IMG/VR virus record: IMGVR_UViG_3300045988_142974
Span: 108,868 to 172,867 of that record
Direction: 5' to 3' (one strand)
DNA length: 64,000 nucleotides
Origin: a virus
Positions 12,367-57,869 of the stretch are shown here, piece by piece. The notes beneath the pieces were generated by a model. The model worked only from the letters and a program-made list of their open reading frames with translations, had not been told where the DNA came from and made no database searches. Both the position numbers and the translations under genes were made by a program. The stretch's first letter is position 1; each line of letters begins with the position of its first letter.

Positions 12367-12390
12367 CGCAGGAAAGCGGAATTTCTTGTG
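12367..12390 (+). promoter_or_regulatory. dyad motif copy (consensus CACAAGAAA-N6-TTTCTTGTG)
   Basis: cgcaggaaa gcggaa tttcttgtg; 16 nt upstream of ATG 12406. Confidence 0.6.
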
Positions 12391-12405
12391 ATGAAAGGAG
12401 AAAAT

Positions 12406-13128
12406 ATGTATCCAGAATACGATGATTTTTATGAGCCAAGTGAGGGCGAAATGTTTTTTGATGAAATGAAAGAAAAGTTCAGAGAGATTTTACGTGAAGA
12501 TGTAAATTCTGAAATCAGTAGATTAACAAAAGAAAATGCAGAATTAGGACAAAAGGTTAAAGAGTATAATGATAAAAATTTAAATCTTTCTTGTAGAGAA
12601 AGAGATTTGCAGTACAAGATTGACAATTACAAGCGAGAGGTAGAGAAAGACTTTTACAATAAAACAATGGAAGAAGTTTTTGAGAAACTTTTAGAAGACT
12701 CAGAAGTGTGGTATGCAGAACGTGTTCCTCATGAGAAACCAAAATGTAATTTATGTAATGAGGAAAGAAAACTTATTGCAGTATATCCAAATGGTGAAAC
12801 TGTAACCAAGGAGTGTGAATGTTCTCGACCAGCATATATTTATGAGCCAGTAATTTCATTGAATAAAGAGATTAAATTTCATAAGGCGTATAAGCCAAGA
12901 TATAGTGATAAAAAGAAAGTCTATTTTACTAAAAATTACAAACCAAACAAGGATTATGCAGATGCATACGATTATTACAGTGAATTCAGAATAGAAAATA
13001 TTTTTGATGATTTTAATGATGATGTAATTCTATATCACAATGGAAAAAGCTATGGAGAAAAAATTGCATTCAGAAGTAAAGATGCTTGTCAGAAATATTG
13101 TGATTGGCTTAATAAGGAGAATAAGTAA
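12406..13128 (+). CDS. hypothetical protein (coiled coil plus Cys-rich region)
   Basis: ATG 12406 after AAAGGAG; track start 12388 lies inside the dyad motif. Confidence 0.55.
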   Translation: MYPEYDDFYEPSEGEMFFDEMKEKFREILREDVNSEISRLTKENAELGQKVKEYNDKNLNLSCRERDLQYKIDNYKREVEKDFYNKTMEEVFEKLLEDSEVWYAERVPHEKPKCNLCNEERKLIAVYPNGETVTKECECSRPAYIYEPVISLNKEIKFHKAYKPRYSDKKKVYFTKNYKPNKDYADAYDYYSEFRIENIFDDFNDDVILYHNGKSYGEKIAFRSKDACQKYCDWLNKENK

Positions 13129-13620
13129 ATGATAGTTGGTGTAAAAATATGTGAAGCGAAAGATACAATTAAGAAATATGAAGACCTTGGGTATAAGTTT
13201 GTTAGTGAAGAAAATGTAGGTGAAGGATATTTAAAACTTATATTCAGAGGTTCAATTGTTCCAGAAGAGAATAATATAACAGATATTCAATTCCATGAGG
13301 GCGATTTTATAGAAAATAAGGATGGGAAAATTGGATATATTTCATCCATTTGTCATTGTGATGAGTGTAAAAAACGTGGATTTTTTGAACCAACTATTAC
13401 ATATCTTGATGGAACACCAGATTACATTAGCAATTATTCTGTTAAAACTATTTCGTCTGATTATAAACAGATTGGGATTCAGAAGTTTTCAACAGAAGAT
13501 ATATTGAGAAATAAAATAGCTGCACTTGAGAAAGAGAATAAAGAATTAAAGGAAAAAGTAAATTATTTTATTAATAGAAACGAACTATTAAGGTTGTATA
13601 TAGGAAGGAATGATAAGTAA
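13129..13620 (+). CDS. hypothetical protein
   Basis: ATG abuts upstream stop, GGAGAATAAGTAAATG junction. Confidence 0.55.
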   Translation: MIVGVKICEAKDTIKKYEDLGYKFVSEENVGEGYLKLIFRGSIVPEENNITDIQFHEGDFIENKDGKIGYISSICHCDECKKRGFFEPTITYLDGTPDYISNYSVKTISSDYKQIGIQKFSTEDILRNKIAALEKENKELKEKVNYFINRNELLRLYIGRNDK

Positions 13621-14403
13621 ATGGCATATATAAAACAATATTGGCAGAATAAAGAACAAAGAGCGACAATTGCTCGTGAACACACAAAAGAGATGCGGAA
13701 TAAATATGGTCGTTGTATTCAAACTTCAATTTTGGGTACAAAAATTTATGATACAAATTCATTTAATAGGGATTTTGAAGAGAATATCGAAGATAAAGAT
13801 ACCAAGATTATTGTAGAGGATATTGATAGTGTAGGTGCTGTAATGAAATACGGCAATCCAAGTACAGCAGTTCTTAATTTTTCTTCATATAAAAATCCAG
13901 GTGGAATGTTTTTAAATGGTAGTAAGGCACAGGAAGAGTGCTTATGTCACGAATCATTCTTATACAATGTGTTGAGTCAGTTTGTATTAAAGTTTTATGA
14001 TTGGAATAATCGACATAAGAATAAGGCTTTATATTTGAATAGAGGATTATTTTCTCCCGGTGTTTGGTTCTTTAGAGAGAATAGCCATGTAGAGTGTAGT
14101 GTTATTACTTGTGCTGCTCCAAATAAGTCGGCTGCTCAGAAATATCAGAACGTGTCAGACGAAGAGAATACTAAAGCATTAAGAAGTCGAATTAAATTTG
14201 TTCTTAATATGGCGAAAGACAACAATGTGAGCACTCTTATTTTAGGAGCTTATGGATGTGGAGTATTTGGGCAAGACGCAACAGAAGTAGCGAATATATT
14301 TAAAGAATATTTAACTACTACTCATAAATGCTTCGATACTGTTGTATTTGCTGTTCCAAATGGCAGAGATGGTAACTATGAGAAGTTTGTAAAAGTATTT
14401 TAA
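13621..14403 (+). CDS. PARG-like macrodomain protein (TIGR02452-type)
   Basis: VLNFSSYKNPGGMFLNGSKAQEECLCHESFLY, ITCAAPN, LILGAYGCGVFGQD match my recollection of the TIGR02452 macrodomain family. Confidence 0.75.
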   Translation: MAYIKQYWQNKEQRATIAREHTKEMRNKYGRCIQTSILGTKIYDTNSFNRDFEENIEDKDTKIIVEDIDSVGAVMKYGNPSTAVLNFSSYKNPGGMFLNGSKAQEECLCHESFLYNVLSQFVLKFYDWNNRHKNKALYLNRGLFSPGVWFFRENSHVECSVITCAAPNKSAAQKYQNVSDEENTKALRSRIKFVLNMAKDNNVSTLILGAYGCGVFGQDATEVANIFKEYLTTTHKCFDTVVFAVPNGRDGNYEKFVKVF

Positions 14404-14420
14404 TAAAGGAGGACGAATAA

Positions 14421-14666
14421 ATGAGTATATGGATAAGTACAAAGGATCAAATGCCACCAATAAACGAGGAAGTTTTAATTTTATACAAAGATAAAAAAGA
14501 TGAACTAAAAGAAGAAAATTTATTTTACAGTGTTGCAAGTTGGATTAAAGATTCCAATTTTGGGTTTGAGAGATGGTCATATTTTATTGAGTATTCGGGG
14601 TATTACGAGGTAGTATATTGGACACCACTTGTAGATATGCCAAGAATAAAGACACAGGAAACATAG
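14421..14666 (+). CDS. DUF551-like phage protein
   Basis: WISTKDQMPPINEEVLIL ... VYWTPLVDMP; AAGGAGG SD. Confidence 0.5.
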   Translation: MSIWISTKDQMPPINEEVLILYKDKKDELKEENLFYSVASWIKDSNFGFERWSYFIEYSGYYEVVYWTPLVDMPRIKTQET

Positions 14667-14676
14667 ATTTCTTGAG
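14653..14676 (+). promoter_or_regulatory. dyad motif copy
   Basis: cacaggaaa cataga tttcttgag; 18 nt upstream of ATG 14694. Confidence 0.6.
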
Positions 14677-14693
14677 GAGTTTAGGAGGGTTTT

Positions 14694-14843
14694 ATGAGAA
14701 TATATACTGAAATGGAATGCGATATTGGTTGTGAAGATGGATATTTTTGCGAATATTACAATGAAGAAACCAAAAGTTGTAATTATCCAAATGTTTGTAA
14801 TGTTTATAAAGAAAATAAAAAGAAACATTGGTGGCAGAAATAA
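14694..14843 (+). CDS. 49-aa Cys-rich mini-protein (not in ORF track)
   Basis: AGGAGGG SD 6 nt upstream; MRIYTEMECDIGCEDGYFCEYYNEETKSCNYPNVCNVYKENKKKHWWQK; fills the gap between flanking genes. Confidence 0.45.
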   Translation: MRIYTEMECDIGCEDGYFCEYYNEETKSCNYPNVCNVYKENKKKHWWQK

Positions 14844-15302: not shown

Positions 15303-15593
15303 ATGAAGAAGAAAATTTTAGCAGTTGCATTAGGATTAACATTGTGTTTTGGAATGACTGGATGCACTGCAAGCGATGATTTGGCAGCCTCTAATATTCC
15401 AAATGAACAACAGTCTAAATGTGAACATGAATACAAAGAAATTGATTGGCATGTTCAGTCATATTCGGACGGTAGTAATGTTGGTTATGATATTTATTGC
15501 CCTAAATGTGAATATGAAATAAATGTTAGTTATAAAGAGTGGAATAAAATTCAAGCAGATATGGAATATAAGAAGGAAAATAAAGCACAGTAA
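15303..15593 (+). CDS. lipoprotein
   Basis: MKKKILAVALGLTLCFGMTGC signal peptide with lipobox; two CxxC pairs. Confidence 0.65.
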   Translation: MKKKILAVALGLTLCFGMTGCTASDDLAASNIPNEQQSKCEHEYKEIDWHVQSYSDGSNVGYDIYCPKCEYEINVSYKEWNKIQADMEYKKENKAQ

Positions 15594-15609
15594 ACCGAAG
15601 TTTCTTTTG
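15586..15609 (+). promoter_or_regulatory. dyad motif copy
   Basis: cacagtaaa ccgaag tttcttttg; left half contains the stop codon of 15303-15593. Confidence 0.6.
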
Positions 15610-15667: not shown

Positions 15668-15716
15668 ATAATTAGTAGCTGGCTTTAAAGGTTGCAACCG
15701 CTTTGGTACTAATTAT
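15668..15716 (+). promoter_or_regulatory. leader hairpin enclosing palindrome GGTTGCAACC (15690-15699)
   Basis: 10-bp stem ATAATTAGTA / TACTAATTAT; 3' arm reaches first base of TTG start 15716. Confidence 0.6.
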
Positions 15717-16522
15717 TGAAACTACAAAATGATAAGTATTACACACCAATAGAATTGGCGAATTACTGTTGGGATAAGGTTTTTGAAGTTGTTGGCGAAG
15801 AAAATATATCAGAGATTATTGAGCCTAGTGTTGGGAATGGCAGTTTTCTTCATCATGCAGAGCAACTACCACATTTTGCGTATGATATTGAACCTGAGTG
15901 CGAATCTAATTTTACTCATATCTTTAAGCAGGATTATTTAAGTGCTGATATAAAGTATCTTTGGGGAAGGCTGATAATAGGAAATCCACCATACGGAAGA
16001 TGTTTAAATATGGCACAGAAATTTTTTAAGAAGTCAGTTGAAATTGCAGATACAATTGCATTTATTCTTCCTATAAGTCAATTGAATAACACAAGGTCAA
16101 TGTATGAGTTTGATTTGGTATATAGTGAAGATTTAGGTATCCAGCATTATACAGATAGAGATTTACATTGTTGCTTTAATATTTATCGCAGACCTGATAG
16201 TGGAGAATTAAATAGTAAACCAGTCGCAAAATTAAAGGATGTCACTATATATCGGCAGGATAGCAAGGGATATAACGAGAAAGATTTTGATGTTCGTATG
16301 TGCTATTGGGGTGATGGATCTGCTGGAAAGATATTAAAGGATGATGAACATTATTCGGCAGAATATAAAATCAAGATAAATAATGAAGAATTAAAAGAAG
16401 ATATTATTGAAGTGCTTACTACATTTGATTGGAAGGAATATCTAAATTGTATTGCAATGAGAAAAATACAACAATTTCACATTGTCGATGTCTTAAAGAA
16501 GAATATCAAAGGAATTAAATAA
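15716..16522 (+). CDS. N6-adenine DNA methyltransferase (gamma-type, NPPY)
   Basis: DKYYTP, EPSVGNGSF (motif I), IIGNPPYG (motif IV); TTG start, no SD. Confidence 0.8.
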   Translation: MKLQNDKYYTPIELANYCWDKVFEVVGEENISEIIEPSVGNGSFLHHAEQLPHFAYDIEPECESNFTHIFKQDYLSADIKYLWGRLIIGNPPYGRCLNMAQKFFKKSVEIADTIAFILPISQLNNTRSMYEFDLVYSEDLGIQHYTDRDLHCCFNIYRRPDSGELNSKPVAKLKDVTIYRQDSKGYNEKDFDVRMCYWGDGSAGKILKDDEHYSAEYKIKINNEELKEDIIEVLTTFDWKEYLNCIAMRKIQQFHIVDVLKKNIKGIK

Positions 16523-16541: not shown

Positions 16542-16581
16542 GAGCAAGAGATTTGCTGCAGCGTTAAATCTGGATTTGCTC
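16542..16581 (+). promoter_or_regulatory. leader hairpin with apex palindrome GCTGCAGC (16555-16562)
   Basis: Nested stems GAGCAA/TTGCTC and AGATTT/AAATCT; 5' arm overlaps the only GGAG (16541-44). Confidence 0.6.
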
Positions 16582-16591
16582 TGAGTAAGAA

Positions 16592-17467
16592 ATGTTAGAG
16601 ATTAACAAAATATACAACGAAGATTGCTTTGAAGGTATGAAAAAGATTGATGATAAGTCAATAGATTTTATTTTTACGGATCTTCCTTATAATACGACTA
16701 ATAATTCTTGGGAATGTGAAATGCCGTTAAATGATTATGTCGAGTTATCAGGTCAATATTTTTATGAAACAGATTTATTCAAGTTAGCTCAAGTAACAAA
16801 TAGCAGTCTCGAATATACAAGAGATTGGTTCTACGAGAATAAGAAAGATGGCTTATGGAATCATTACAATCGAATCATCAAAGATAACGGTTGTATTGCA
16901 CTATGGGCGCAGTCACCTTTTGATAAGAAACTCGCTTGTAGTAATGAAAAGCTATATCGCTATGAATGGATTATCGAAAAAACCAAAGCAACTGGTCATC
17001 TAAATGCAAAGAAAATGCCTATGAAGGCACACGAAAATGTCTTAATTTTCTATAAGAAACTCCCTACTTACAATCCACAAATGACAGAAGGACATACACC
17101 TGTTCATTCTTATACAAAACATACAACAGATGGTAGCTGTTATGGTGCTACAAAGACTGGTATTTCAGGTGGTGGTAGTACACAAAGATACCCAAGAGAT
17201 GTTCAGCAGTTCAAGTGGGACACTCAGAAAAGTAGCTTACATCAATGTCAAAAGCCTGTTGAAGCGTGTGAGTATTTTATTAAAACCTATACTAATCCAG
17301 GAGATTTAGTTCTTGATTCGTGTGCAGGAAGTTGTACCACTGCAGTTGCAGCTTTGAATACAGGTAGAAATTACATATGTTTTGAGAAGGACAAGGATAT
17401 TTTTGAGGTTGGAAGTAAGAGAGTAGCTGAATATGCTAATCAGGATTTATTGATAAGTGCAACTTAA
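16592..17467 (+). CDS. DNA methyltransferase, N4/N6 beta class
   Basis: FTDLPYN (DPPY-type motif IV) N-terminal, DSCAGSCTTAVAA (motif I) C-terminal. Confidence 0.85.
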   Translation: MLEINKIYNEDCFEGMKKIDDKSIDFIFTDLPYNTTNNSWECEMPLNDYVELSGQYFYETDLFKLAQVTNSSLEYTRDWFYENKKDGLWNHYNRIIKDNGCIALWAQSPFDKKLACSNEKLYRYEWIIEKTKATGHLNAKKMPMKAHENVLIFYKKLPTYNPQMTEGHTPVHSYTKHTTDGSCYGATKTGISGGGSTQRYPRDVQQFKWDTQKSSLHQCQKPVEACEYFIKTYTNPGDLVLDSCAGSCTTAVAALNTGRNYICFEKDKDIFEVGSKRVAEYANQDLLISAT

Positions 17468-17490
17468 TTAAGAGAATAAGAACAATGAAA

Positions 17491-17540: not shown

Positions 17541-18275
17541 ATGAAATATATGGGTTCAAAATCTCGTATAGTTGATAATATTTTACCGATTATTCAAGAA
17601 AGATTGCGAGATTATAATATCAAAACATACATAGAGCCATTTTGCGGCGGCTGTAATGTAATCGACAAAGTTCAATGTGATATAAAAATCGCTTCTGACA
17701 ATCATAAATATCTTATTGAAATGTTCAAGAATCTAAATCAGATTCAAAATCTCCCAGAATTTATTACAAAAGAACATTACTCAGATGTAAGAAAGTGTTT
17801 TAATAAAGGATTATCCCAATATCCAGATTGGTATATTGGTGCAGTTGGCTTTCTTTCAAGCTATAACGGAAGATTCTTTGATGGAGGTTACTCAGGTATC
17901 GTATATACAAAAGCTGGAACTGAAAGAAATTATTACGATGAAGCTAAGAGAAATTTGTTAGAGCAGATTCCAAGGTTAGAAGATATTCAATTCCAATGTG
18001 GAGATTATAAAGAGTTATATTCTGATAAAGTTGACTGCTTATTTTATTGCGATATTCCATATAAGGGTACGAAACAGTATGGATCAAGTAAGAATTTTGA
18101 TTATGACAGATTCTGGAATTGGGCTGAGAAGATGAGCGAGAAAAATATTGTCTTAGTCAGTGAGCATGAAGCTCCTTCTGGATGGGAATGTATTTGGCAA
18201 CAGGAAGTCAAGAGAACGATTGACAATACGAAGCAAGTTAAAGCAGTAGAAAAGTTATTTGAAATTAGAGAATAA
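17541..18275 (+). CDS. Dam-like N6-adenine DNA methyltransferase (D12 class)
   Basis: MKYMGSKSRI, EPFCGG, YCDIPY. Confidence 0.85.
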   Translation: MKYMGSKSRIVDNILPIIQERLRDYNIKTYIEPFCGGCNVIDKVQCDIKIASDNHKYLIEMFKNLNQIQNLPEFITKEHYSDVRKCFNKGLSQYPDWYIGAVGFLSSYNGRFFDGGYSGIVYTKAGTERNYYDEAKRNLLEQIPRLEDIQFQCGDYKELYSDKVDCLFYCDIPYKGTKQYGSSKNFDYDRFWNWAEKMSEKNIVLVSEHEAPSGWECIWQQEVKRTIDNTKQVKAVEKLFEIRE

Positions 18276-18294: not shown

Positions 18295-18681
18295 TTGAAT
18301 GAACCAAAGTTTTATGTACAGGAATTAATATCTACGGAATATATGGACAAAAGAGTTTTAATCCTATATCCATATGAACTTAGCAATGAGCCGATATTAA
18401 AAGACAATATTCCCAAAATGACAAAAGTGATAAGAGAATATATAAAAGAGTCTGAAATGTATAGAAAGTGTGTAGATACAATTCCAAATCTTATATGGGA
18501 TTCTCAAAAATTATCTATGCAGAATGAAGCTGATGAACATCAAAGAAAAGCTGATGAACTTGCAGAAATAATGAATGAAGGTATCAGTCCTTATGCGTGG
18601 TATGTTAAAGGTAGGTTTGATGGAGAGATAGGTGGATTTCATTACAATGTAGATAATATAGTTTATTTGGATAGAAACTAG
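18295..18681 (+). CDS. hypothetical protein
   Basis: TTG 4 nt after GGAGGTGA; track start 18259 overlaps upstream gene. Confidence 0.5.
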   Translation: MNEPKFYVQELISTEYMDKRVLILYPYELSNEPILKDNIPKMTKVIREYIKESEMYRKCVDTIPNLIWDSQKLSMQNEADEHQRKADELAEIMNEGISPYAWYVKGRFDGEIGGFHYNVDNIVYLDRN

Positions 18682-18780
18682 CAAGAAATTTTGGTTTCAA
18701 GGTTTGTCACGAAAACTATATAATATTCGGGATAAAAAAGAGAATATATCAATGTAATTACAATTAAGGAAAGGAAAGAC

Positions 18781-18824: not shown

Positions 18825-19661
18825 TTGAAAAATACATATATTAAATCGCCTCTAAATTATGTCGGAGGCAAGTATAAGTTACTACCAATTATTGTACCAA
18901 TGTTTCCAGATAAGATAAATACTTTTGTAGATTTATTTGGTGGAGGTTTTAATGTCGGTATTAATGTAAAAGCTGATCATATTATCTACAATGATATATG
19001 TGAGCAGGTAGTTGGTTTTCTAAGATATTTACAAGGTTCAAATATTGAAGAAGTATTATATAAGATTGATTCATATATTAGTAAGTATGGATTAACGAAA
19101 GAAAACAAAGAAGGATATTTACTGTTTAGAAAAGAATATAACACAGGTATTAAAGATCCAATTAAATTCTATACGCTTTTATGTTATGCGTTCAATAATC
19201 AAATCAGATTCAATTCCAAAGGTGAATATAACATGCCTTTTGGTAAAGACAGATCCAGTTTTAATCCCACTCTTAGACAAAAATTTATAGATTTTCATAA
19301 GCAACTGAATGAAATAGATTGTAGTTTCTTAAATATTCCATTTGAGAGATTTGATTTTTCTGATTTTACGGAAGGTGATTTTGTTTATGCAGATCCACCA
19401 TATTTTAATTCTGTTGCTACATACAATGAAAACGGTGGCTGGACAGAAGAAATGGAGAATAAATTACTAGAGACTCTTGATGCTTTGAATGATAAAGGCG
19501 TTAAGTTTGCATTAAGTAATAATCTCAAATATGACAATCCATTACTTGATAAATGGAAAGATAAATACATAGTTCATTATTTAAAGCATGATTATAGTAA
19601 CTGTAATTACCAGAAAAAGGATAAGAGTGCAGATTGTGAGGTATTAATCACAAATTATTAA
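18825..19661 (+). CDS. Dam-like N6-adenine DNA methyltransferase (D12 class)
   Basis: LNYVGGKYKLL, FVDLFGGGFNV, YADPPY; TTG start, no SD. Confidence 0.85.
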   Translation: MKNTYIKSPLNYVGGKYKLLPIIVPMFPDKINTFVDLFGGGFNVGINVKADHIIYNDICEQVVGFLRYLQGSNIEEVLYKIDSYISKYGLTKENKEGYLLFRKEYNTGIKDPIKFYTLLCYAFNNQIRFNSKGEYNMPFGKDRSSFNPTLRQKFIDFHKQLNEIDCSFLNIPFERFDFSDFTEGDFVYADPPYFNSVATYNENGGWTEEMENKLLETLDALNDKGVKFALSNNLKYDNPLLDKWKDKYIVHYLKHDYSNCNYQKKDKSADCEVLITNY

Positions 19662-19666: not shown

Positions 19667-19709
19667 TCAACCTCTGAAATGCCCTAAAATCAAGGCTTTC
19701 AGAGGTTGA
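19667..19709. terminator. strong hairpin (13-bp stem); T-tract only on the minus-strand side
   Basis: TCAACCTCTGAAA (19667-79) / TTTCAGAGGTTGA (19697-709); + strand 3' flank AAAAGC, minus strand 3' flank GATTTTT. Confidence 0.6.
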
Positions 19710-19748
19710 AAAGCAAAGTAAAACCACGTTTCATTTAAGGAGGTAAAA

Positions 19749-21173: not shown

Positions 21174-21380
21174 ATGATTAAAAATAAGGCTTTAGCACAA
21201 ATTTTAAAGAATCAATATTTAATTTTATATTATTTACGACACTGCGAGTCTTGTAAAAATCTAATGGAGGACATTAATGAAATTACTGATAACGCATTAA
21301 TAAAAACTGAATATTTTACAGACAAATTGTTGCATAGAAGGCGAACAAGAAAGAAGCATTTCCTTCAAGTTTTTGAATGA
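21174..21380 (+). CDS. hypothetical protein
   Basis: ATG abuts upstream stop (GGGAGAATAAATG). Confidence 0.45.
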   Translation: MIKNKALAQILKNQYLILYYLRHCESCKNLMEDINEITDNALIKTEYFTDKLLHRRRTRKKHFLQVFE

Positions 21381-21423: not shown

Positions 21424-23622
21424 ATGAGAGTATTACTTTTATTAAGAGGCTCTGCTGGTTGTGGAAAATCAACTTGGATTGAGCAGAATGGATTAAAGTC
21501 ATATGCATTATCAGCGGATGATATTAGATTACTGTGTCAGAGTCCAGTATTACAACCTGATGGAACAGTAGGGATTAGTCAGAGTAATGATAAAACCGTT
21601 TGGAAGACATTGTTTAATTTACTTGAAATTCGTATGCAGAAAGGTGAGTTTATAGTAATTGATGCTACAAATTCAAAAACATCTGAGATAAACAGATATA
21701 AGCAGATGTGTGAAACATACAGATATAGGATGTATTGTGTCGATTTTACAGATATTCCAATTGAAGAAGTAAAGAAAAGAAATGTCAACAGAGAGGAATT
21801 AAAGAGAGTTCCTGATGAAGCAATCGAAAAAATGTATTCACGTTTCAAGACTCAGAAAATTCCTTCTGGTATTAAGGTAATTAAGCCAGATGAGTTAGAT
21901 TCTATTTGGATGAAGTTATTTGATTTATCTGAATATAAGAAAATTCATCATATCGGAGACGTTCATGGTTGCTATACAGCGTTAAAGAAATATATTGATG
22001 ACAATGGCGGTATTAAAGATGATGAATTTTACATCTTCTGCGGTGATTATGTAGATAGAGGTATTGAAAATGCTGATGTTGTTAAGTATCTGATTTCTAT
22101 TAAGGATAAGAAAAATGTCCTTATGCTTGAAGGAAATCATGAAAGATGGCTTTGGTTATGGGCTAATGATTGTACAAGTAAGTCTAAAGAATTTGAACTT
22201 GTAACAAAGCCACAGTTAGAAGAAGCAAAGATTGATAAAAAGGATGTACGTCAGCTTTATAGAAAATTTGGACAGTGTGCTTATTATAGATATGGAGAAA
22301 ATATTTATTTAGTAACTCATGCAGGTTTAAGTGTATTACCAGATAATCTTACATTTGTTGCAACAGATCAGATGATTCATGGAGTTGGTAATTACAATGA
22401 TTTTGAAAAAATTGCAGAGACATTTGCTGAAAAAATGCCATCAAATTATTATCAAATTCATGGTCATAGAAACACTAAACAAGTTCCAATTCGTGTGAAT
22501 GATAGAGTATTTAATCTTGAAGGAAGAGTTGAATTTGGTGGGAATTTAAGATGTGTTCAGCTTGATAAAGATGGTATGTACGAAATAGAAATTCATAATG
22601 AAGTATTCAAAACACCCGAAATGAGAGAAGAACAGAGTGTAACAAATAGTTCTGTTGCTGATGTAATTATTTCATTAAGAGCAAATAGATACATTCAGGA
22701 AAAGAAATTTGGTAATATTTCTTCTTTCAATTTTACGAACAAGGCTTTTTACGACAAGGTATGGGACGAGCAGACTACAAAAGCAAGAGGTTTATATCTT
22801 GACACATTTAAGGGAAAGGTAGTAGCAAGGGCTTATGATAAGTTCTTTAACATCAACGAGCGACCAGAAACAAAATTTGATATGCTACAGAATAAGCTTC
22901 AATTCCCTGTTACAGCATATGTAAAAGAAAATGGTTATTTAGGTATTGTAAGCTACGATGAATACAATGATGATTTATTTATTGCAAGTAAATCTACTAT
23001 TGACAGTCAGTTTGCACAATGGCTCAAAGAAGCTATTTACAATCAGATTACAGAAGAAAATAGAGAAAAAATGAAACAGTATGCGAAAGATAATAATGTG
23101 TCATTTGTATTTGAAAATGTTGATATGAAAAATGATCCGCATATTATTGAATATCTTGAAAGTAAGTTATATCTATTAGATATTGTTTATAATCAGATGG
23201 ATTTTGCTAAATATGATTATGAAACTATGTGTGATATTGCTCATCAGCTTGGATTAACTCCAAAAGAAAAAGCATTTGAGATTGCTAATTGGCAGGATTT
23301 TTATGATTGGTACTATGATATTCTTGAAGAGGATTATGAATACAATGGTAGAAAAATTGAGGGATTTGTAATCGAAGATAGTGTTGGATATATGACAAAA
23401 CTGAAGCTTGCATATTATAACTTTTGGAAGTTTATGAGAGCAATTTCACATGAAGCTATTAGAAATGGATATATTAAAAAGACATCTGCTTTAACAACTC
23501 CTATTGCTAATGAGTATTATGCATGGGTAAGAAAGTTGCATGATGTCGATGATATTGATTCAATTCCAAAAGATATTTGTACATTGAGAAGATTATTTTT
23601 TAAAGACAAATTAGGAGAATAA
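21424..23622 (+). CDS. polynucleotide kinase / metallophosphatase / RNA-ligase-like fusion (Pnkp-like RNA repair enzyme)
   Basis: P-loop GSAGCGKST; calcineurin-type GDVHG, GDYVDRG, GNHE, GH; C-terminal nucleotidyltransferase motif I YVKENGYLG (KxNG). Confidence 0.8.
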   Translation: MRVLLLLRGSAGCGKSTWIEQNGLKSYALSADDIRLLCQSPVLQPDGTVGISQSNDKTVWKTLFNLLEIRMQKGEFIVIDATNSKTSEINRYKQMCETYRYRMYCVDFTDIPIEEVKKRNVNREELKRVPDEAIEKMYSRFKTQKIPSGIKVIKPDELDSIWMKLFDLSEYKKIHHIGDVHGCYTALKKYIDDNGGIKDDEFYIFCGDYVDRGIENADVVKYLISIKDKKNVLMLEGNHERWLWLWANDCTSKSKEFELVTKPQLEEAKIDKKDVRQLYRKFGQCAYYRYGENIYLVTHAGLSVLPDNLTFVATDQMIHGVGNYNDFEKIAETFAEKMPSNYYQIHGHRNTKQVPIRVNDRVFNLEGRVEFGGNLRCVQLDKDGMYEIEIHNEVFKTPEMREEQSVTNSSVADVIISLRANRYIQEKKFGNISSFNFTNKAFYDKVWDEQTTKARGLYLDTFKGKVVARAYDKFFNINERPETKFDMLQNKLQFPVTAYVKENGYLGIVSYDEYNDDLFIASKSTIDSQFAQWLKEAIYNQITEENREKMKQYAKDNNVSFVFENVDMKNDPHIIEYLESKLYLLDIVYNQMDFAKYDYETMCDIAHQLGLTPKEKAFEIANWQDFYDWYYDILEEDYEYNGRKIEGFVIEDSVGYMTKLKLAYYNFWKFMRAISHEAIRNGYIKKTSALTTPIANEYYAWVRKLHDVDDIDSIPKDICTLRRLFFKDKLGE

Positions 23623-24386: not shown

Positions 24387-24410
24387 CACAGTAAATTCAG
24401 GTTTCCTTTG
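24387..24410 (+). promoter_or_regulatory. dyad motif copy, abutting 14-bp palindrome CTTTGTATACAAAG (24406-24419)
   Basis: cacagtaaa ttcagg tttcctttg; starts 4 nt after stop 24383. Confidence 0.6.
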
Positions 24411-26004: not shown

Positions 26005-26028
26005 CGCAGTAAACCAATCTTTCTTTTG
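26005..26028 (+). promoter_or_regulatory. dyad motif copy
   Basis: cgcagtaaa ccaatc tttcttttg; 7 nt after stop 25998. Confidence 0.6.
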
Positions 26029-26048: not shown

Positions 26049-26207
26049 AGCCATTCGGCTATGGGAATCCCAGTAACAAGGAAAAATAATATTTTCTTAT
26101 AGTGGTTGCAAACACTAGGAAAATCAATAATTTTATAATACAGAAAGGTATAAATAGTAAACCTATAGGTAATTTAGATTGCGCAATCTCTATGTAAATA
26201 AGAGATT
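26049..26207 (+). promoter_or_regulatory. structured leader, copy B (homologous to 11257-11428)
   Basis: Hairpin AGCC-attc-GGCT, GTAACAAG box, TAGTG/CACTA hairpin around TTGCAA, AGAAAGG box, palindromes ACCTATAGGT (26161-70) and AGATTGCGCAATCT (26176-89). Confidence 0.55.
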
Positions 26208-27468: not shown

Positions 27469-27492
27469 GGCAAGAAATTTTTCTTTCTTGGG
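27469..27492 (+). promoter_or_regulatory. dyad motif copy
   Basis: ggcaagaaa tttttc tttcttggg (7-bp perfect arms CAAGAAA/TTTCTTG); runs into GGAGGTGA SD. Confidence 0.65.
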
Positions 27493-29371: not shown

Positions 29372-30335
29372 ATTAGTAAAAGAGTACGCATATCCAAGTG
29401 GTAGTGTTTATGTTCTTTATAATAAAGAAAAGAATTTCTACATTGAAACTACTTCTATGCAGGATGTAAATACAAAAGGAAAATCTCAGGAAATCATTAT
29501 GACAGATGATGCAGATTTGATTAAAAAGAATCTCGTTCCGTTTGAGGAAAAGTGGCTTACAGCGATTAGTACACAGTACGGATGTCCACAGCATTGTCAG
29601 TTCTGTTTAGTACCAGAGTTAGGATTTCACGGAAATCTTTCTACAGAAGAAATGTGGGAACAGCTTGAATTTGTATTTAATCAGCATCCACAGGTCACAA
29701 AGAGCGACAAGATTAAAGTGGGCTTTGCACGTATGGGAGAACCACAATATAACTGGAAAAATATTTTACAGGTAATGAGAGATATGAAAACTTATAGAGA
29801 AGGATTTACTTTCTTGCCTTGCTACAACACAATTCTTCCTAAAGTGAAAGTATTTGGTAAGAGTCCAGTTGATGTTCTGAAGGACGAAGTTATGTCTGTA
29901 AAAGAGTATCTTGACGGATTTATGCACATTCAAATTTCAACAAATAGCACAAATGAAGATGAGAGAAAGTATCTGTTTGGTGGTGCTGATGTTGTAACTA
30001 TCGAAGAGATGAAGAAAGAATTTAATAATATGCCGAATAACAATAGACTTATCACTCTGAATTTTATTTGTGGAGCAGGATGGGAACTTGATCCAAACAA
30101 GTTATATGGTCTTGATCCGAATGTGTTTTGTGTTAAAATTACACCTCTTAATACAACGACAGCTACTAAGGAGCATGGTCTTGAAGATGCAATTCAGTGG
30201 AATTGGGAGAATATGAATAAGATTAAAGAAAAGGTTGAGAGTTGTGGTCTAAAGGTAGTTGTAGATGTAGCTGCTAAAGCAGAATTACCATTATGCTGTG
30301 GTAACTTGGTTCAGGATTATAAAAAGAATAGATAG
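29358..30335 (+). CDS. RlmN/Cfr-like radical SAM methyltransferase homologue
   Basis: ISTQYGCPQHCQFCLVPELGFHGNLSTEEM, ARMGEPQYN, IQISTNSTNEDER, KITPLNT, LPLCCGNL parallel E. coli RlmN blocks as I recall them; ATG 29358 after AAGGAGAG. Confidence 0.7.
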   Translation: MKHFELVKEYAYPSGSVYVLYNKEKNFYIETTSMQDVNTKGKSQEIIMTDDADLIKKNLVPFEEKWLTAISTQYGCPQHCQFCLVPELGFHGNLSTEEMWEQLEFVFNQHPQVTKSDKIKVGFARMGEPQYNWKNILQVMRDMKTYREGFTFLPCYNTILPKVKVFGKSPVDVLKDEVMSVKEYLDGFMHIQISTNSTNEDERKYLFGGADVVTIEEMKKEFNNMPNNNRLITLNFICGAGWELDPNKLYGLDPNVFCVKITPLNTTTATKEHGLEDAIQWNWENMNKIKEKVESCGLKVVVDVAAKAELPLCCGNLVQDYKKNR

Positions 30336-30357
30336 GAAGAAAGATTCGTTTCTTGTG
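30334..30357 (+). promoter_or_regulatory. dyad motif copy
   Basis: aggaagaaa gattcg tttcttgtg; left half overlaps stop 30333-35. Confidence 0.65.
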
Positions 30358-30409: not shown

Positions 30410-31063
30410 ATGGCATACATATATAGGTACACTGATTTAGTGGATAACATAATCAAATATGTTGGAATAGTATGGTCTGACAACAGAAGTTTAGAAGATA
30501 GACTGTATGAACATGAATTAAGAGATGACTGGTGTAGAACAAGAAAATGGAAAATTGAATACTTAACAGAGAATATTACAACAAGAACTGATGCTGAGTA
30601 TTTTGAAGCACATTACATTAGTTTGTATCAAACAGATAAATATTTTAATGTTTCTAAAGCAGGTTGGGGTGTAAGTTCATTTTTACCAAATAGAGAAAAT
30701 GATTGGGTAGAATTTATACAAAAGCCAATTGCATTAAAACAGAATTTGTCAGATTTGAGACTAACAATAATGGAAGAAAAGCGTAAGCTCAATAAACTTC
30801 AGTTTGAGATCGAGGATAAGAATAAAGAGTTGGATAAGCTTGCGTGTAATATAAATTACTGTCTTGATTCATCTAATAATTTCACTCTTAACTCTAGTGA
30901 ATTAATAAAAAGATTAGATGAGAAAAGAGCCACGTATGAAGATTTCCAATATGGAATTACAAGTAAATCCTCGATTAATAAATGGATATATAGAGAAGAA
31001 GGAATTAGAGCTGCAATTTCGATAGTAAAAGAATATCTTTTGGATATGAAGTGTGCAGTTTAA
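30410..31063 (+). CDS. GIY-YIG domain protein (possible free-standing homing endonuclease)
   Basis: YIYRYTDLVDNIIKYVGIVWSDNRSLEDRLYEHE fits the GIY-(10)-YVG...R...E pattern; coiled-coil C-terminus. Confidence 0.5.
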   Translation: MAYIYRYTDLVDNIIKYVGIVWSDNRSLEDRLYEHELRDDWCRTRKWKIEYLTENITTRTDAEYFEAHYISLYQTDKYFNVSKAGWGVSSFLPNRENDWVEFIQKPIALKQNLSDLRLTIMEEKRKLNKLQFEIEDKNKELDKLACNINYCLDSSNNFTLNSSELIKRLDEKRATYEDFQYGITSKSSINKWIYREEGIRAAISIVKEYLLDMKCAV

Positions 31064-31085
31064 GAAGAATTATCGGTTTCATGTG
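31062..31085 (+). promoter_or_regulatory. dyad motif copy (weaker)
   Basis: aagaagaat tatcgg tttcatgtg; runs into GGAGG SD of 31097. Confidence 0.45.
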
Positions 31086-32261: not shown

Positions 32262-32285
32262 CGCAGTAAATTTCGATTTCTTTTG
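32262..32285 (+). promoter_or_regulatory. dyad motif copy
   Basis: cgcagtaaa tttcga tttcttttg; followed at once by GGAGAATATAAT. Confidence 0.6.
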
Positions 32286-33556: not shown

Positions 33557-33603
33557 AATAAGAGTACATGAATCTGACATTTCTTGGTTGTGGAGGTGAG
33601 ATT

Positions 33604-35060: not shown

Positions 35061-35172
35061 GACTCATTTGAGTTACAATTTCCAATAAAAATGAAAATCG
35101 AATAGAGAATAAGTAAGTGAAAGGAGTTCAGTGGAAATCACTGTTTCATTCGGATTTTGAGGAGGTGAGAAA

Positions 35173-37374: not shown

Positions 37375-37461
37375 TCTAACTTTGTTGTAGGTACGAATGA
37401 AATAGTTTGAAATATGTACCATTTTTATAAAAAAATATTTTTAAAAATAAAGGAGAATTAC

Positions 37462-45800: not shown

Positions 45801-46838
45801 TCAAAAATGGTTCAATTAATTAAAGCTGGTTGCTTTACAGAATTGCACTCATCAGATAGAAAAGAAACAATGCGTTGGTATTTAAAAAACTATGCTTTTA
45901 CTCCAAGTGACAAGATTACAATGCAACAGTTCGCAAAAATGACAGAATTGGGTATTATTCCTGAATCATTAGATTTAGCAAAACGTATGGTTAATTTCAA
46001 AAAATATGTTTTAGATGATGAAGGATTGTATGAAAAGCATATAGATGAAGGAAAGAAAATACCCAAAAGAGGATATCATGATGGTTATTATATTCTCGAC
46101 AACAATTCTCAGCCTTTCTTCAAGGAACATTTCACAGAAGACTCAGTAATTAAAATAAAAGGAGAATATTATATTGTATCAGAGAAATTATTTACCAAGG
46201 AGGTTGATAGATACATTCAGCCATTAAAGGATTGGTTTGACAATTCTGATACATTAAATCTCTACAATGGGGTTTTATTCAAAACTGTTTGGAATCAATA
46301 TGCTGATGGTACATTACCTTCTTGGTCTATGCAAGCATTGAGTTTCTATGATGGTGAGCATGAATTGGAGAATATTAATGAAGAACTATATGGCATAGTT
46401 AATTTCTTTGATTTACCAGAAGAACCAGAACCTTACGATTATTACACTCGTTATATTGATGGTTCACCAAAGAAAATACCTAAATTTAAGATTTCAAGAA
46501 TAGCAGGAACAGTTATTAATGCTGATAACTTGCATTGTATGGTCACACTTCTTACAAAATATGGTGCAGTACATGTGAAGTTTAATAAAGGTCATTATGC
46601 ATTTTATAATAAACAAATTTCAGCAAAGCTTGATCCGAATAGTGACAAGAAAACTGTACTTGAAAGAAGTTGGCTAAGTAGAGGTTCAAAGATTGTTGTG
46701 GCAGGAATCAGAAGAGATGATAGTTTCAGACCAATGATTTATAAAGACACAATTTATCAACACACAGTAAACAAGGTTCAAGAGATACATTCAGATGGCA
46801 CATTGCTACTTCAATCTGAAAGAACAAAAGTTGATTAA
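42900..46838 (+). CDS. dnaE: DNA polymerase III alpha subunit (DnaE-type, PHP domain)
   Basis: GVHNHSAEGSNLRLRDS, FTEHES PHP motifs; GSHAGGIIL; 1312 aa; GTG after AAGGAGG. Confidence 0.9.
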   Translation: MSFFGVHNHSAEGSNLRLRDSINKVPEMIEYAHSLGHAGICFTEHESITSSLDALKYYDSHKDLEGWENFKVVLGNEIYLCTEDVTAENKFNNRYPHFILVALNAHGHQGIRELSTKAWTKNSFMHVMMRVPTYYSDLEEMMANYKGDIIGSSACLGGALPHRLLQFQDLERANPKEYEKIWQSCKDWIAYMNEIFGEGYFFLELQPSHMLEQIYVNHKLIQLSEETGTPYIITTDAHYLKKEDRQIHKIFLESQDGDREVDDFYSTTYIMSEDEIHEYMDEYYGHDVVQKGLDNTMLIYGKAEYYKLTKDLDIPYIPLNTSEPNKELYEKFKNQIPLLSEFYHSEYDCDRHLVRDIVAYIDTDPYYQTDEAYEKINECLHYIKDSSEKMKVRWSKYLLQIAIDVQIAWSAGTLVGAGRGSGVGFCLLNILGITQINPLREKTKTYPWRFLNPERASVLDIDIDICGSKREAVIQAMKDTYGEDRVSKVMTLSTEKSRSAILTAARGLKIDNDIAQYISSLIVADRGQLRTLSQMYYGDDDNPPVQEFVTEMNKYPELWEAAQKIEGLVNGVGSHAGGIILVDRPFTDTTALMKTNSGDVITQFDLHMCEDCSLIKVDLLCIDALDKMQAELELLLENNVIEWQGSLKATYEKYIGVYTLERNAKDMWEMLWNHKVMSFFQMEKESGVQAVALAKPASVDELATINSVLRLMAQEKGAETPLQKYARFRENIQYWYDEMTEYGLTQEEQDILKDIIGVSFGICEAQEYLVLLTMHPKIGGFSLAWGDRLRKAVAKKKPKEFLQLQEEFFANAEEKHLSKNLTTYVWNVLICTQRGYGFNKSHTLAYSIIGLQELNLCYKYSPIYWQTANLIVDSGAVDENAGDSTNYGKMAIAIAAVQKENVKVELPLINSADFGFKADVENNRIIFGLKGINGIGDDIVQAIIQNRPFNSMEDFAHKMLDTKLITKSKMVQLIKAGCFTELHSSDRKETMRWYLKNYAFTPSDKITMQQFAKMTELGIIPESLDLAKRMVNFKKYVLDDEGLYEKHIDEGKKIPKRGYHDGYYILDNNSQPFFKEHFTEDSVIKIKGEYYIVSEKLFTKEVDRYIQPLKDWFDNSDTLNLYNGVLFKTVWNQYADGTLPSWSMQALSFYDGEHELENINEELYGIVNFFDLPEEPEPYDYYTRYIDGSPKKIPKFKISRIAGTVINADNLHCMVTLLTKYGAVHVKFNKGHYAFYNKQISAKLDPNSDKKTVLERSWLSRGSKIVVAGIRRDDSFRPMIYKDTIYQHTVNKVQEIHSDGTLLLQSERTKVD

Positions 46839-49135: not shown

Positions 49136-49663
49136 ATGCCCATAAATAGGGCGTTTCAGAGACTCAAAAAGCCAAGGAAAGACGGATTTCATGCCGTTCT
49201 TAACACAATATATAGTGGTTGGATAAACACGCAACCGCTATATATAGTACATAATAAAGGAGATGATACTACATATATGAAATTTTATGAACGATTAGAA
49301 CACTGGTCATATTTATTAAAATCAAAAGCATTATATCATGAGCTGAAATATTATGTAAAGAAACGACAAACACACATTAAACGATTATATGGTTTTAATA
49401 GTAGAGGGATCGGTAAAACATATAATCTGATGAAGATTAGTGGTAAATATAAAATTCCTGTTATTGAACCGATGGGAAGCATGGCAGATTATGCATATAA
49501 AATGCACTTAAAATTCAATCCAATTGTACTTACACCAAGTCAGTTAAGAGAGAAAGTGCAGCCAGGAACAATTATATTGGTTGATGAAAAACAATTATTG
49601 AATGAAAATGCTAAATCTGAATTAGATAGATATATACAAGTTGGATTTGAAACAGAGAATTAA
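49136..49663 (+). CDS. hypothetical protein
   Basis: AGAGG SD; 175 aa. Confidence 0.5.
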   Translation: MPINRAFQRLKKPRKDGFHAVLNTIYSGWINTQPLYIVHNKGDDTTYMKFYERLEHWSYLLKSKALYHELKYYVKKRQTHIKRLYGFNSRGIGKTYNLMKISGKYKIPVIEPMGSMADYAYKMHLKFNPIVLTPSQLREKVQPGTIILVDEKQLLNENAKSELDRYIQVGFETEN

Positions 49664-50495: not shown

Positions 50496-50519
50496 AACAA
50501 GAATCGACAGTTTCTTGTG
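50496..50519 (+). promoter_or_regulatory. dyad motif copy
   Basis: aacaagaat cgacag tttcttgtg; 4 nt before AAGGAGG SD. Confidence 0.65.
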
Positions 50520-50939: not shown

Positions 50940-50963
50940 AGCAAAAATCCATTATTTCTTGTG
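50940..50963 (+). promoter_or_regulatory. dyad motif copy (good right half, weak left half)
   Basis: agcaaaaat ccatta tttcttgtg. Confidence 0.4.
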
Positions 50964-51910: not shown

Positions 51911-51934
51911 CACAGTAAACTAAACTTCTTTGAA
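51911..51934 (+). promoter_or_regulatory. dyad motif copy (right half shifted by 1 nt)
   Basis: cacagtaaa ctaaac ttctttgaa. Confidence 0.4.
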
Positions 51935-56218: not shown

Positions 56219-56231
56219 AGAGAGGAAAGAA

Positions 56232-56480: not shown

Positions 56481-56484
56481 ATTG

Positions 56485-57024
56485 ATGAGTATTTGCTTGG
56501 TTGGTAAGTCTTGTAGTGGTAAAGACACGATTGCAAGAGAATTAGTAAAATTGGGATATGAAAGAATTTTAACTTACACTACACGTCCAGCAAGATCTAA
56601 TGAACTTGATGGTGTAGATTACCATTTTGTAACCGAAAATGAGTTTAAAGATATGATTAAAAACAAGGAATTTTTGGAGTGGAGAAGTTATCAGACCAAC
56701 GAAGGTACTTGGTACTACGGTAGCCGATTGGCAGATTTCTATGATTATAATAGAAAAAAAGTTGTAATTCTAACGCCTGACGGATTAGAACACTTAAATG
56801 ATCTGTTTGACTCATACATTTCTATTTACTTAACTGCCAAAAATTCAATTTTAAAAAAGCGAATGAAAAAGAGACCAAACAAGAAAGAATCTAAACGTAG
56901 ATATAAGGCAGATAAAGTTATGTTTGATGGAAAGGAAGATAACTTTGATTATCTCGTTAAAAATTACGACAGACCAGTCGAAGAAGTTGCTTCTGTGTGT
57001 AAATTTTTCGATGAAACGGCATAA
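56485..57024 (+). CDS. guanylate-kinase-family nucleotide kinase
   Basis: GKSCSGKDT P-loop, TYTTRPARSNELDGVDYHFV, FLEW. Confidence 0.75.
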   Translation: MSICLVGKSCSGKDTIARELVKLGYERILTYTTRPARSNELDGVDYHFVTENEFKDMIKNKEFLEWRSYQTNEGTWYYGSRLADFYDYNRKKVVILTPDGLEHLNDLFDSYISIYLTAKNSILKKRMKKRPNKKESKRRYKADKVMFDGKEDNFDYLVKNYDRPVEEVASVCKFFDETA

Positions 57025-57036
57025 AGTGTGATAAAA

Positions 57037-57210
57037 ATGAGAGAAAATAAGAAAAGAATGTATTGTGCTAATCGCAATTGTTCATCTTTAGATTGTGTTC
57101 GACATGATAAAAATATTCCGTTCAATATTCTTATACTAAGAGAGAATTATAAAGTGGACAGTAACGGTAATTGTAAAAACAAAATATTAAATTGGGAGGA
57201 TGATAAATGA
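57037..57210 (+). CDS. Cys-rich mini-protein
   Basis: No clear SD; start uncertain (57028 GTG / 57037 ATG). Confidence 0.4.
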   Translation: MRENKKRMYCANRNCSSLDCVRHDKNIPFNILILRENYKVDSNGNCKNKILNWEDDK

Positions 57211-57635
57211 AAGATTTTCAGATTTATTTAGCAGGTAAAACTGGCGGATTAACTCAAGTAGAAGCTAATGGTTGGAGAAACAATGTAAAAAATATACTCG
57301 AAAATTATGAATCAAAAAGATTTGGTAATATTAGAGTAATTAATCCGAATGATTTTTTTAATTACTATAAAACTTTACATAAGACCCATAAACAAATCAA
57401 ACGGTTTTTTATGAATCAAATTGACAAAAGTGATTTGGTAATTGTTAATTTAAATAACTCTAATAGTTCTGTAGGGACAGGGCAAGAGTTGGAACACGCT
57501 CGCATGAAAGGAATTCCTATTATTGGATATGGAACAAAAAATGTATATCCATGGGAATCTGAGGAAGACTGCGATGTTGTTTTTGACACAGAAGAAGAAT
57601 GTGTTGAATATGTTTTAGATTATTATTTGCGCTAA
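57207..57635 (+). CDS. nucleoside 2-deoxyribosyltransferase / DNPH1-like protein
   Basis: QIYLAGK, SVGTGQELEHARMKGIPIIG. Confidence 0.6.
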   Translation: MKDFQIYLAGKTGGLTQVEANGWRNNVKNILENYESKRFGNIRVINPNDFFNYYKTLHKTHKQIKRFFMNQIDKSDLVIVNLNNSNSSVGTGQELEHARMKGIPIIGYGTKNVYPWESEEDCDVVFDTEEECVEYVLDYYLR

Positions 57636-57651
57636 ATTAAGGAGGATTTTT

Positions 57652-57819
57652 ATGAATAATGATATGAATTATGATGAAATTACTGTTGGTGATTGCTTAG
57701 AACAGTTTGAATACAAGAACGAAACTGTTTTACTCAATGACGGCAAAGTTGCTGAATTTGTAAAAAATGAAGAAAAAATTGGTGATTTTAAAAAGGGGGT
57801 GTTCTCGCAGATCGCATGA
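57652..57819 (+). CDS. 55-aa protein (not in ORF track)
   Basis: AAGGAGG 6 nt upstream; MNNDMNYDEITVGDCLEQFEYKNETVLLNDGKVAEFVKNEEKIGDFKKGVFSQIA. Confidence 0.45.
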   Translation: MNNDMNYDEITVGDCLEQFEYKNETVLLNDGKVAEFVKNEEKIGDFKKGVFSQIA

Positions 57820-57845
57820 ATACTGGGTTTGCGAGGCTAAAAAAG

Positions 57846-57869
57846 CACAAGAAAGGTTGATTTCTTATG
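57846..57869 (+). promoter_or_regulatory. dyad motif copy (best palindrome)
   Basis: cacaagaaa ggttga tttcttatg; 23 nt upstream of nrdD start. Confidence 0.7.

Follow-up and report, generated by a model that had tools for sequence, protein, structure and literature searches.

Several kinds of short repeated sequence are known to lie between the genes of phages. In lambdoid phages, short conserved boundary or linker sequences between functional units have been proposed as places where modules are exchanged by homology. Streptomyces phage phiC31 has conserved inverted repeats (CIRs), which are multi-copy intergenic repressor operators. Here we describe a 24-nucleotide (nt) dyad that is repeated at gene junctions in a 64,000-nt stretch of viral DNA (positions 108,868 to 172,867 of IMG/VR record IMGVR_UViG_3300045988_142974; this whole stretch is called the window below). 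Its two arms are separated by a 6-nt spacer, and the new feature is that these spacers are position-specific and follow a fixed order. To our knowledge, neither lambdoid linkers nor phiC31 CIRs have been described with fixed-order spacers of this kind or at the density of the dyads.

By analogy, the dyad appears to work most like two other groups of elements, namely the promoter-early stem-loops (PeSLs) in its position, its hyperplastic surroundings and its coincidence with breakpoints, and multi-copy repressor sites in its copy number, orientation and lineage-specific consensus. The PeSLs of T4-like phages are short, repeated intergenic elements, about 50 per genome, that combine a consensus sigma-70 promoter with a stable, often G/C-rich terminating stem-loop (PMC2839356, PMC4122927). 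Like the dyads, they occupy hyperplastic regions between non-essential ORFans, are situated between the stop codon upstream and the Shine-Dalgarno sequence downstream, are rare in core modules and coincide with the breakpoints of insertions, deletions and replacements between close relatives. Unlike PeSLs, the dyads have no sigma-70 promoter, their A/T-rich 'stem' is mostly unstable, and they carry sequence-conserved arms at a strict distance of 6 bp together with position-specific spacers in a fixed order. They also belong to a temperate phage with a Gram-positive anaerobe as its likely host.

The stoperators of cluster A mycobacteriophages such as L5 and Bxb1 are 20-30 short repressor sites, mostly unassociated with promoters, and these asymmetric 13-14 bp sites are bound by a monomer, occur genome-wide and have a consensus that co-varies with the repressor across lineages (PMC6550527, PMC9283540). 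The dyads resemble them in their many copies, their orientation with transcription, their lineage-dependent consensus and their occurrence in temperate phages, and, as would be expected of a multi-copy repressor operator, there are at least 10 intergenic copies. Unlike stoperators, they are 24-bp dyads restricted to accessory regions, and their binding is putative. In Bacillus phage SPbeta, the master repressor MrpR binds about 10 repeats, termed SPBRE, each placed immediately ahead of the ribosome-binding site of an early gene (PMC10516654). SPbeta is related to the phage studied here, whose DnaE-type polymerase is 38% identical to YorL of SPbeta. We rejected SPBRE as an identity for the dyad, given that SPBRE as derived from seven upstream regions (ACAAATACAAAWAATATGTATAT) is not a dyad and has no similarity to it, and that no homologue of MrpR (YopR) was found in the window or in related loci.

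The dyad motif and its slots

The dyad has the consensus [CA]RMA[GA][GT]AAW-N6-TTTC[TA]TKKG and is present at 19 junctions in the window. An earlier note, made from the letters of the window, had listed 11 copies with an exact 6-nt spacer and five weaker ones, all of which we find at the same positions and with the same sequences. The five weaker copies are real members, since their spacers (ttttgg, accacg, ctgaca, ccatta and ctaaac) are conserved markers of the same junctions in related phages. Three further dyads, at 21344, 35129 and 49172, had not been listed. At three or fewer mismatches the consensus gives 7 matches in the window where 0.06 would be expected, and none of 100 dinucleotide shuffles reaches 7. 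The repeated functional element at gene junctions is real. Spacing is equally strict, in that GAAA-N6-TTTC occurs 10 times in the window as compared with 0-6 times for spacings of 2-12, and in 88 related loci there are 183 unique contexts at N6 as compared with 27-51 at other spacings. A census with a position weight matrix (PWM) yields about 20 good sites, most of them intergenic. Copies at 11290 and at 6321 (PWM score 8.6) are doubtful, the latter being what the earlier note had taken for a half-site at about 6336. The dyads are confined to the accessory regions at 12-35 kb and 49-58 kb and are absent from the replication core at 36-49 kb and from 1-6 kb, in keeping with the earlier report of no copy in 1-6250.

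A literature search with motif strings returned no description of the dyad. An exact-pattern scan of IMG/VR with AAGAAA-N6-TTTCTTGTG hit at least 119 stretches, and among the matches listed all were single and mostly in unrelated contigs. Such matches are at chance level for 15 specified bases and are uninformative.

The dyad is anchored to the gene upstream of it. In 14 of 18 copies it starts between -14 and +14 nt from the upstream stop codon, and several copies overlap that codon, whereas the distance to the next start codon varies from 11 to 240 nt. These distances correct the earlier description, in which all copies began about 0-30 nt after a stop codon and many ended 4-25 nt before the next Shine-Dalgarno sequence. 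The assignment of all copies to the + strand carries little information, as the near-palindrome scores alike on both strands by PWM and only a consistent left/right asymmetry orients the copies. From centre to centre, 10 bp (one helical turn) separate the GAAA core from the TTTC core, and A/T-rich arms exactly 6 bp apart place both cores on one face of the helix. The left arm is more degenerate, in part because the upstream stop codon often falls within it. The right arm is the better conserved of the two, as the earlier note had pointed out.

Outside the replication core, in which they are 95-97% identical, the window and its close relatives are mosaic. This mosaic has the dyads as its borders, and they stand between exchangeable cassettes of accessory genes, which include methylases, PARG, GIY-YIG, Thg1-like genes and many ORFans. 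Each junction has its own N6 spacer, and one common order of spacers runs through every close relative, so that a spacer marks a slot. Before the core the order is gcggaa, cataga, ccgaag, (ctcgca), ttttgg, accacg, gaagca, ttcagg, ccaatc, tttttc, gattcg, tatcgg, tttcga, ctgaca and tcactg, and after it gacgga, cgacag, ccatta, ctaaac, tgttca and ggttga. There is no violation of this order in 182 intervals, with 151 steps leading to the adjacent slot and the remainder skipping slots. What lies between two dyads ranges from about 175 nt to several kb and is highly variable, with 12 distinct contents in 26 genomes between ctgaca and tcactg, 12 in 21 between gacgga and cgacag, and 10 in 15 between cgacag and ccatta. 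The spacer cgacag alone, at 25 unique sites, joins at least eight unrelated upstream gene ends to at least eight unrelated downstream genes in many combinations.

Homology between genomes breaks within the arms. When two genomes are compared at the same slot, it stops 0-8 nt before N6 in 66% of the comparisons and 3-8 nt after it in 72%, and the island shared at a border is often no more than GAAA, the spacer and TTTC (14 nt). The outer part of the left arm goes with the cassette that precedes it. There are also slots that retain the right arm, the leader and the Shine-Dalgarno sequence and in which the gene switches at its start codon. Cassettes also turn up in other slots without their spacer. 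In 32 pairs, homologous cassettes occupy disjoint slots, and the two members of one pair, in adjacent slots, are 98% identical. The spacers have a G+C content of 48% as compared with 30% in intergenic DNA (p = 1.5e-5). Only 1 of 21 begins with A and none (0 of 21) ends in T, so that both letters are avoided there, and yet the spacers are no more different from one another than random hexamers are.

The earlier suggestion to look for the motif in related phage genomes proved informative, with the dyad present at the same slots in close relatives and its core in more distant ones. GAAA-N6-TTTC persists in relatives with a polymerase or Pnkp of 72-91% identity, where it has different arms and spacers, the arms being of the types AATGAAA...TTTCAT, TTTCAAAGG and GTTGAAA...TTTCAAAG (including ATGAAA/TTTCAT and TTGAAA/TTTCAA). 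Some distant relatives lack any such motif up to 10 kb from the anchor gene. Such lineage-specific arms fit a partner that would be encoded by the phage rather than a factor of the host, to judge from the sequences compared.

Two further observations concern the slots of relatives. At 17600-17650 of one relative (L001), a P-loop gene (MDTIV...) has lost the dyad in front of it, and GGAGAA and the start codon follow directly on what was the left arm, AACAAGAAA. This fits a deletion by microhomology (AAGA) that joined the left arm to the Shine-Dalgarno sequence; a minus-strand cassette at 16556-17485 adjoins the site. Relatives also carry a non-coding cassette of about 178 nt (e.g. L005 2044-2221 and L040 17248-17425) that is absent from the window. 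It occupies the slots flanking the replication core (ctgaca to tcactg, and gacgga to cgacag or ccatta), contains two AACCCTT...AAGGGTT(TT) hairpins and internal GAGAATA motifs, and could be a small RNA, a pair of terminators or a filler of empty slots.

Folding of the dyad and a second junction motif

Given that the two halves of the consensus are reverse complements, the earlier note had considered both a binding site in DNA and a stem-loop in RNA. Among the 17 aligned window copies, standard pairs make up 73.9% of cells, as compared with 74.3 +/- 1.9% when the letters of the 3' arm are shuffled, and no measure of covariation rises above the shuffles. The dyad hairpin is the minimum-energy fold in only about five of 18 copies (one at -11.4 kcal/mol), folds are weak or alternative in the other 13, and most z-scores are above -2. 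In 281 unique related sites the mean is 5.9 pairs of 9, as compared with 5.7 in shuffles. At arm positions 1-3, 5 and 6 of these sites, pairing fails in about 40-50% of cells, and at position 6 the mismatch of T with C recurs. Because pairing and covariation equal those of shuffled sequences, the palindromy belongs to the consensus and does not reflect a selected stem, and consensus palindromy is what should be expected for recognition of two half-sites.

Other signs of a transcript element or a standard promoter are likewise missing. An Rfam search of the whole window matched no family, the dyads have no U-tract, and intrinsic terminators are not enriched. A simple terminator scan was passed only by the dyads at 12367 and 35129, and in both through a different pairing. 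In fold as well as covariation, the dyads fall short of the stable terminating stem-loop by which a PeSL is recognized. A sigma-70 scan found no -35/-10 pair in or beside the dyads, and sigma-70-like sites are fewer than in shuffled sequence.

About 20 junctions carry another repeated motif, AGAGAATAW-N5-T[AG][GA], for example those at 10870, 14846, 16523, 17472, 18740, 21386, 30370, 32286, 34298, 34710, 35105 and 49109. Its strand bias is complete, with 42 instances of AGAGAATA on the + strand and none on the - strand. It contains AATAAT, a -10-like hexamer, without a -35 element, and in three copies the TAA doubles as the stop of the gene before it. These sequence properties make a promoter of a phage-specific or extended -10 kind probable. 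Measured from the start of the dyad, its own start has peaks at -14 and at +32 to +34 (8-10 nt past the dyad end) within a wide spread, and most dyad contexts have no AGAGAATAW within 80 nt. Because the spread is wide and most contexts lack the motif nearby, the two elements should be regarded as independent neighbours and not as a composite of fixed geometry. We also considered the right arm as a -35 element for AGAGAATAW and rejected it, as the spacing would be 14 nt rather than 17.

A regulator site or something else

We tentatively favour an explanation in which the dyad is a duplex-DNA site, an insulator or operator, for a putative dimeric phage regulator, and in which crossovers also take place, in register, at its identical core of 14 nt. 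Of the roles that the earlier note had proposed, the site for a dimeric DNA-binding regulator fits best because the N6 spacing of one turn is strict, the conservation comes without covariation and the arms are lineage-specific. The regulator part of this explanation is suggested by the anatomy of the dyad and by the precedents of stoperators and SPBRE/MrpR, and the crossover part by the comparison of relatives, where the pattern seems to parallel PeSL-mediated shuffling in T4-like phages. We envisage that the arms would be bound by a dimeric DNA-binding protein encoded by the phage, and that the bound protein might repress or insulate cassettes, some of them potentially harmful to a lysogen, by acting as a roadblock or by occluding adjacent AGAGAATAW promoter-like elements. 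The shared GAAA, spacer and TTTC could then provide short in-register homology for cassette exchange between co-infecting relatives or with resident prophages, probably by means of the phage's own Sak4-like annealing protein and exonuclease.

Several observations weigh against this explanation. The search for a regulator gave no candidate, and no helix-turn-helix protein was found with Pfam or PHROGs among about 80 open reading frames (ORFs) of the window. The dyad has no fixed distance to the promoter-like AGAGAATAW, and, with no regulator at hand either, the 'regulon operator' that had been proposed is unproven. The arms are not equivalent, and the overlap of the left arm with stop codons explains the advantage of the right arm only in part. 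Restriction to accessory regions is unlike the genome-wide distribution of stoperators, homologous recombination would have a very short core of just 14 nt to work with, and the non-neutral composition of the spacers is not predicted by a plain operator model. Finally, the loss of the dyad in L001 means that it is dispensable for that P-loop gene, which elsewhere follows a dyad.

The regulator search extended beyond the window. There are no homologues of YopR (MrpR), YopQ, YopP, AimR, YonO, YonR or YonN in the window or in related loci, and in one relative the DNA past the integrase holds just a methyltransferase-like ORF and no repressor. An 83-amino-acid (aa) ORF at 34809-35060 matches only a C-terminal S24 (LexA/UmuD-type) peptidase domain, and we rejected it as a repressor, given that the DNA upstream is too short for a DNA-binding domain and that the product is UmuD-like instead. 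As far as we know, the boxes of host regulators (CRP/FNR, Rex, LexA, CodY, ComK and parS) differ from GAAA-N6-TTTC in orientation or spacing.

Alternatives in which the dyad acts on or through transcription seem unlikely. One is an RNA-level element, either a short hairpin or a single-stranded motif where one cassette's message has its 3' end and the following one its 5' end, that would serve as a processing site, stabiliser, attenuator or site for an RNA-binding protein. Dyads do stand directly past stop codons on the coding strand, where PeSL stem-loops at equivalent places are terminators, and an AGAGAATAW 14 nt upstream would put the dyad at the 5' end of a transcript. Moreover, G.T mismatches exceed A.C mismatches at arm position 2 (16% vs 9%) and position 5 (21% vs 4%), although a strong coding-strand GC skew partly accounts for this G/C asymmetry. 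The five copies that do form the dyad hairpin must be set against the 13 that do not, the missing covariation, the frequent unpaired positions of the 281 related sites and the lack of U-tracts, enriched terminators or an Rfam match. The absence of compensatory change, the weak or alternative folds and the stop-anchored position likewise speak against the 5' untranslated stem-loop (RegA-like operator), RNase site or stabiliser of the earlier note. Less likely again is a promoter of a phage-specific class, with the arms recognized as upstream and downstream elements by a phage-encoded or phage-modified RNA polymerase and with many cassettes given their own start just before the ribosome-binding site. 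This would suit an intergenic, oriented element with lineage-specific arm variants, about eight copies of which end 11-24 nt ahead of a start codon with only a Shine-Dalgarno sequence between, in regions that have no sigma-70-type promoters; at 19714 the dyad is the sole element between a strong hairpin and the next gene. However, the position is fixed to the upstream stop and not to the downstream gene, whose start codon can be 240 nt away, the consensus is palindromic, the replication core has no dyads, and no extra phage RNA polymerase or sigma gene appears among the approximately 80 window ORFs (Pfam and PHROGs), nor a homologue of YonO in the window. AGAGAATAW-N5-TRR with its -10-like AATAAT is the better candidate for a promoter.

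Recombination-based alternatives appear still less probable. Tyrosine-recombinase core sites of the lox, FRT, dif or attC-like kind consist of inverted arms that flank an overlap region of 6-8 bp, and the dyads could be dedicated sites with such a 9-6-9 core, in which the spacer is an overlap that must match and cassettes would swap in register only, as in a natural form of recombinase-mediated cassette exchange. The architecture and strict spacing agree with this, as do the GC-rich, slot-specific spacers in fixed order, the breaks in homology within the arms on both sides and the combinatorial joining of unrelated genes at one spacer. We nevertheless consider dedicated sites very doubtful, the least probable of the explanations discussed here. 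The terminal integrase is the only recombinase found, with no paralogue in the window or in 90 related loci (tblastn with the integrase) and no extra recombinase gene among the window ORFs (Pfam and PHROGs). The 32 pairs with a cassette in another slot lack its spacer (even in the pair that is 98% identical), the start-codon switches in several slots place many crossovers away from the spacer, the spacers are no more distinct than random, and a recombinase site would not be expected to have such short, degenerate arms. A broader version, slightly less doubtful and still improbable, is that the dyads are addressable exchange sites whose arms recruit either a dedicated recombinase or the Sak4-like annealing system, with the GC-rich spacer as an address that forces in-register replacement. 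If true, this would amount to an integron-like but ordered shuffling of anti-defence and other accessory genes.

The copies, the phage and what the dyads may organize

All dyads of the window are read here on the + strand. The copy at 12367..12390 (spacer gcggaa) begins 14 nt past the stop of a C5-methylase gene and lies 15 nt ahead of the ATG at 12406. At 14653..14676 (cataga) the stop codon TAG of the upstream gene falls within the spacer, and at 15586..15609 (ccgaag) a TAA in the left arm is that stop. The dyad at 18680..18703 (ttttgg) overlaps the upstream stop codon and has AGAGAATAT 36 nt downstream, and that at 19714..19737 (accacg) is preceded by a hairpin and followed 11 nt further on by an ATG. 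This hairpin, at 19669-19709 between a Dam-like methylase gene and the dyad, is CAACCTCTGAAA-N17-TTTCAGAGGTTG, a perfect stem of 12 bp with a T-run after it on the - strand only. The dyad at 21344..21367 (gaagca) overlaps the 3' end of a 68-aa ORF, and those at 24387..24410 (ttcagg), 26005..26028 (ccaatc) and 27469..27492 (tttttc) begin 3, 6 and 12 nt past a stop codon, the second being followed by about 180 nt of non-coding DNA. The GIY-YIG cassette has its left border at 30334..30357 (gattcg), with AGAGAATAT 12 nt downstream, and its right border at 31062..31085 (tatcgg). Immediately after the dyad at 32262..32285 (tttcga) comes GAGAATATAAT and then the Thg1-like gene, 33565..33588 (ctgaca) has 31 unique contexts in relatives, and 35129..35152 (tcactg) is the final dyad ahead of the conserved replication core. 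Past the RecD2-like gene, the first dyad is at 49172..49195 (gacgga), and in many relatives homology stops at 49190-49193. It is followed by 50496..50519 (cgacag), 50940..50963 (ccatta), a degenerate copy at 51911..51934 (ctaaac) whose right arm has TTC for TTTC through the loss of one T and whose slot marker is intact in relatives, and 57846..57869 (ggttga), which lies 22 nt ahead of nrdD and is the closest match to the consensus.

Other repeated elements were seen at junctions. Where the block of RNA-repair and accessory genes begins, ACCATATATAGT at 6263-6274 is followed at 6295-6306 by its reverse complement, ACTATATATGGT, and the starts of the two are 32 bp apart. The pair resembles tandem NrdR boxes, which we take to be of the form acaCwAtATaTwGtgt with two boxes about 31-32 bp apart. 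Similar pairs lie ahead of dyads in relatives (L001 1639-1731, L021 2582-2890 and 16211-16316, and L056 before 20914). The non-coding junctions at 11288-11340 and 26073-26130 share GTAACAAG(A/G)AA...TTTTC(C/T)TAT(G/A)GT followed by the inverted repeat CCTATGG...CCATAGG, and this shared element has no match in Rfam.

The window has a G+C content of 32%, 6.5% of it is non-coding, and all credible genes are on the + strand. The replication core comprises the DnaE-type polymerase (42900-46838), DnaB, primase, exonuclease (41862-42833), the Sak4-like annealing protein (37414-38451) and RecD2, and further genes encode NAD ligase, nrdD/nrdG and dUTPase. A Tn916-type tyrosine integrase lies at the window end (62738-63919), and the same integrase is about 0.9 kb from the contig end in two relatives. 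A megablast search of GenBank phages gave no close relative and only a 44-nt match to Lak phages. IMG/VR contains about 60 related contigs of 90-160 kb, mostly from gut metagenomes, and a 220-kb contig of a Lachnospiraceae isolate (B68, contig CAJTKM010000003) has an internal polymerase locus, apparently in a prophage, about 90% identical to that of the window. Because the integrase lies near contig ends and a similar polymerase locus is inside an isolate contig, the window is part of a large temperate SPbeta-like phage, a gut prophage whose host is probably a member of the Lachnospiraceae. The dyad-free left end (1-5838) carries a C-terminal fragment of a P-type ATPase, the three TerD genes of the window, a PspA-like gene and a 751-aa PHROG 1735 protein with 58-61% identity to proteins of Bacillus Bastille-like phages and Clostridioides phage pCD1602_4.

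Some of the accessory genes may serve in conflict with host defences. An RNA-repair set at 6403-9429, 21424-23622 and 32318-33175 (Tpt1/KptA, an RlaP-like nucleotidyltransferase, a CCA-adding enzyme, a Pnkp-RNA ligase fusion and the Thg1-like enzyme) suggests defence against host systems that cleave tRNA. Neighbouring cassettes hold five DNA methyltransferase or methyltransferase-like genes, at 11429-12352, 15716-16522, 16592-17467, 17541-18275 and 18825-19661, of which one is of the C5 type, one methyltransferase-like, one N4/N6 and two Dam-like; the methyltransferase-like assignment of 15716-16522 has a PHROGs match as its sole support. Near them lie Sir2 (9440-10180) and a PARG/macro gene (13621-14403), and this combination in a variable region looks like an anti-restriction or anti-defence arsenal. 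Many ORFans are encoded in the window as well.

Because its cassettes carry methyltransferases, PARG/macro, Sir2, RNA-repair enzymes and ORFans, the dyad probably organizes both the turnover and the silencing of this arsenal. The arms would constitute a compact insulator or operator part for use in Clostridia, provided that they have a cognate binding protein. The dyads also bear on an old argument over phage mosaicism, which sets exchange at short conserved linkers against random illegitimate recombination that is filtered by selection. With about 20 tagged borders per genome, up to 12 contents per slot and about 60 related contigs, this phage group is an unusually clean natural data set, and the linker model thereby becomes directly testable.

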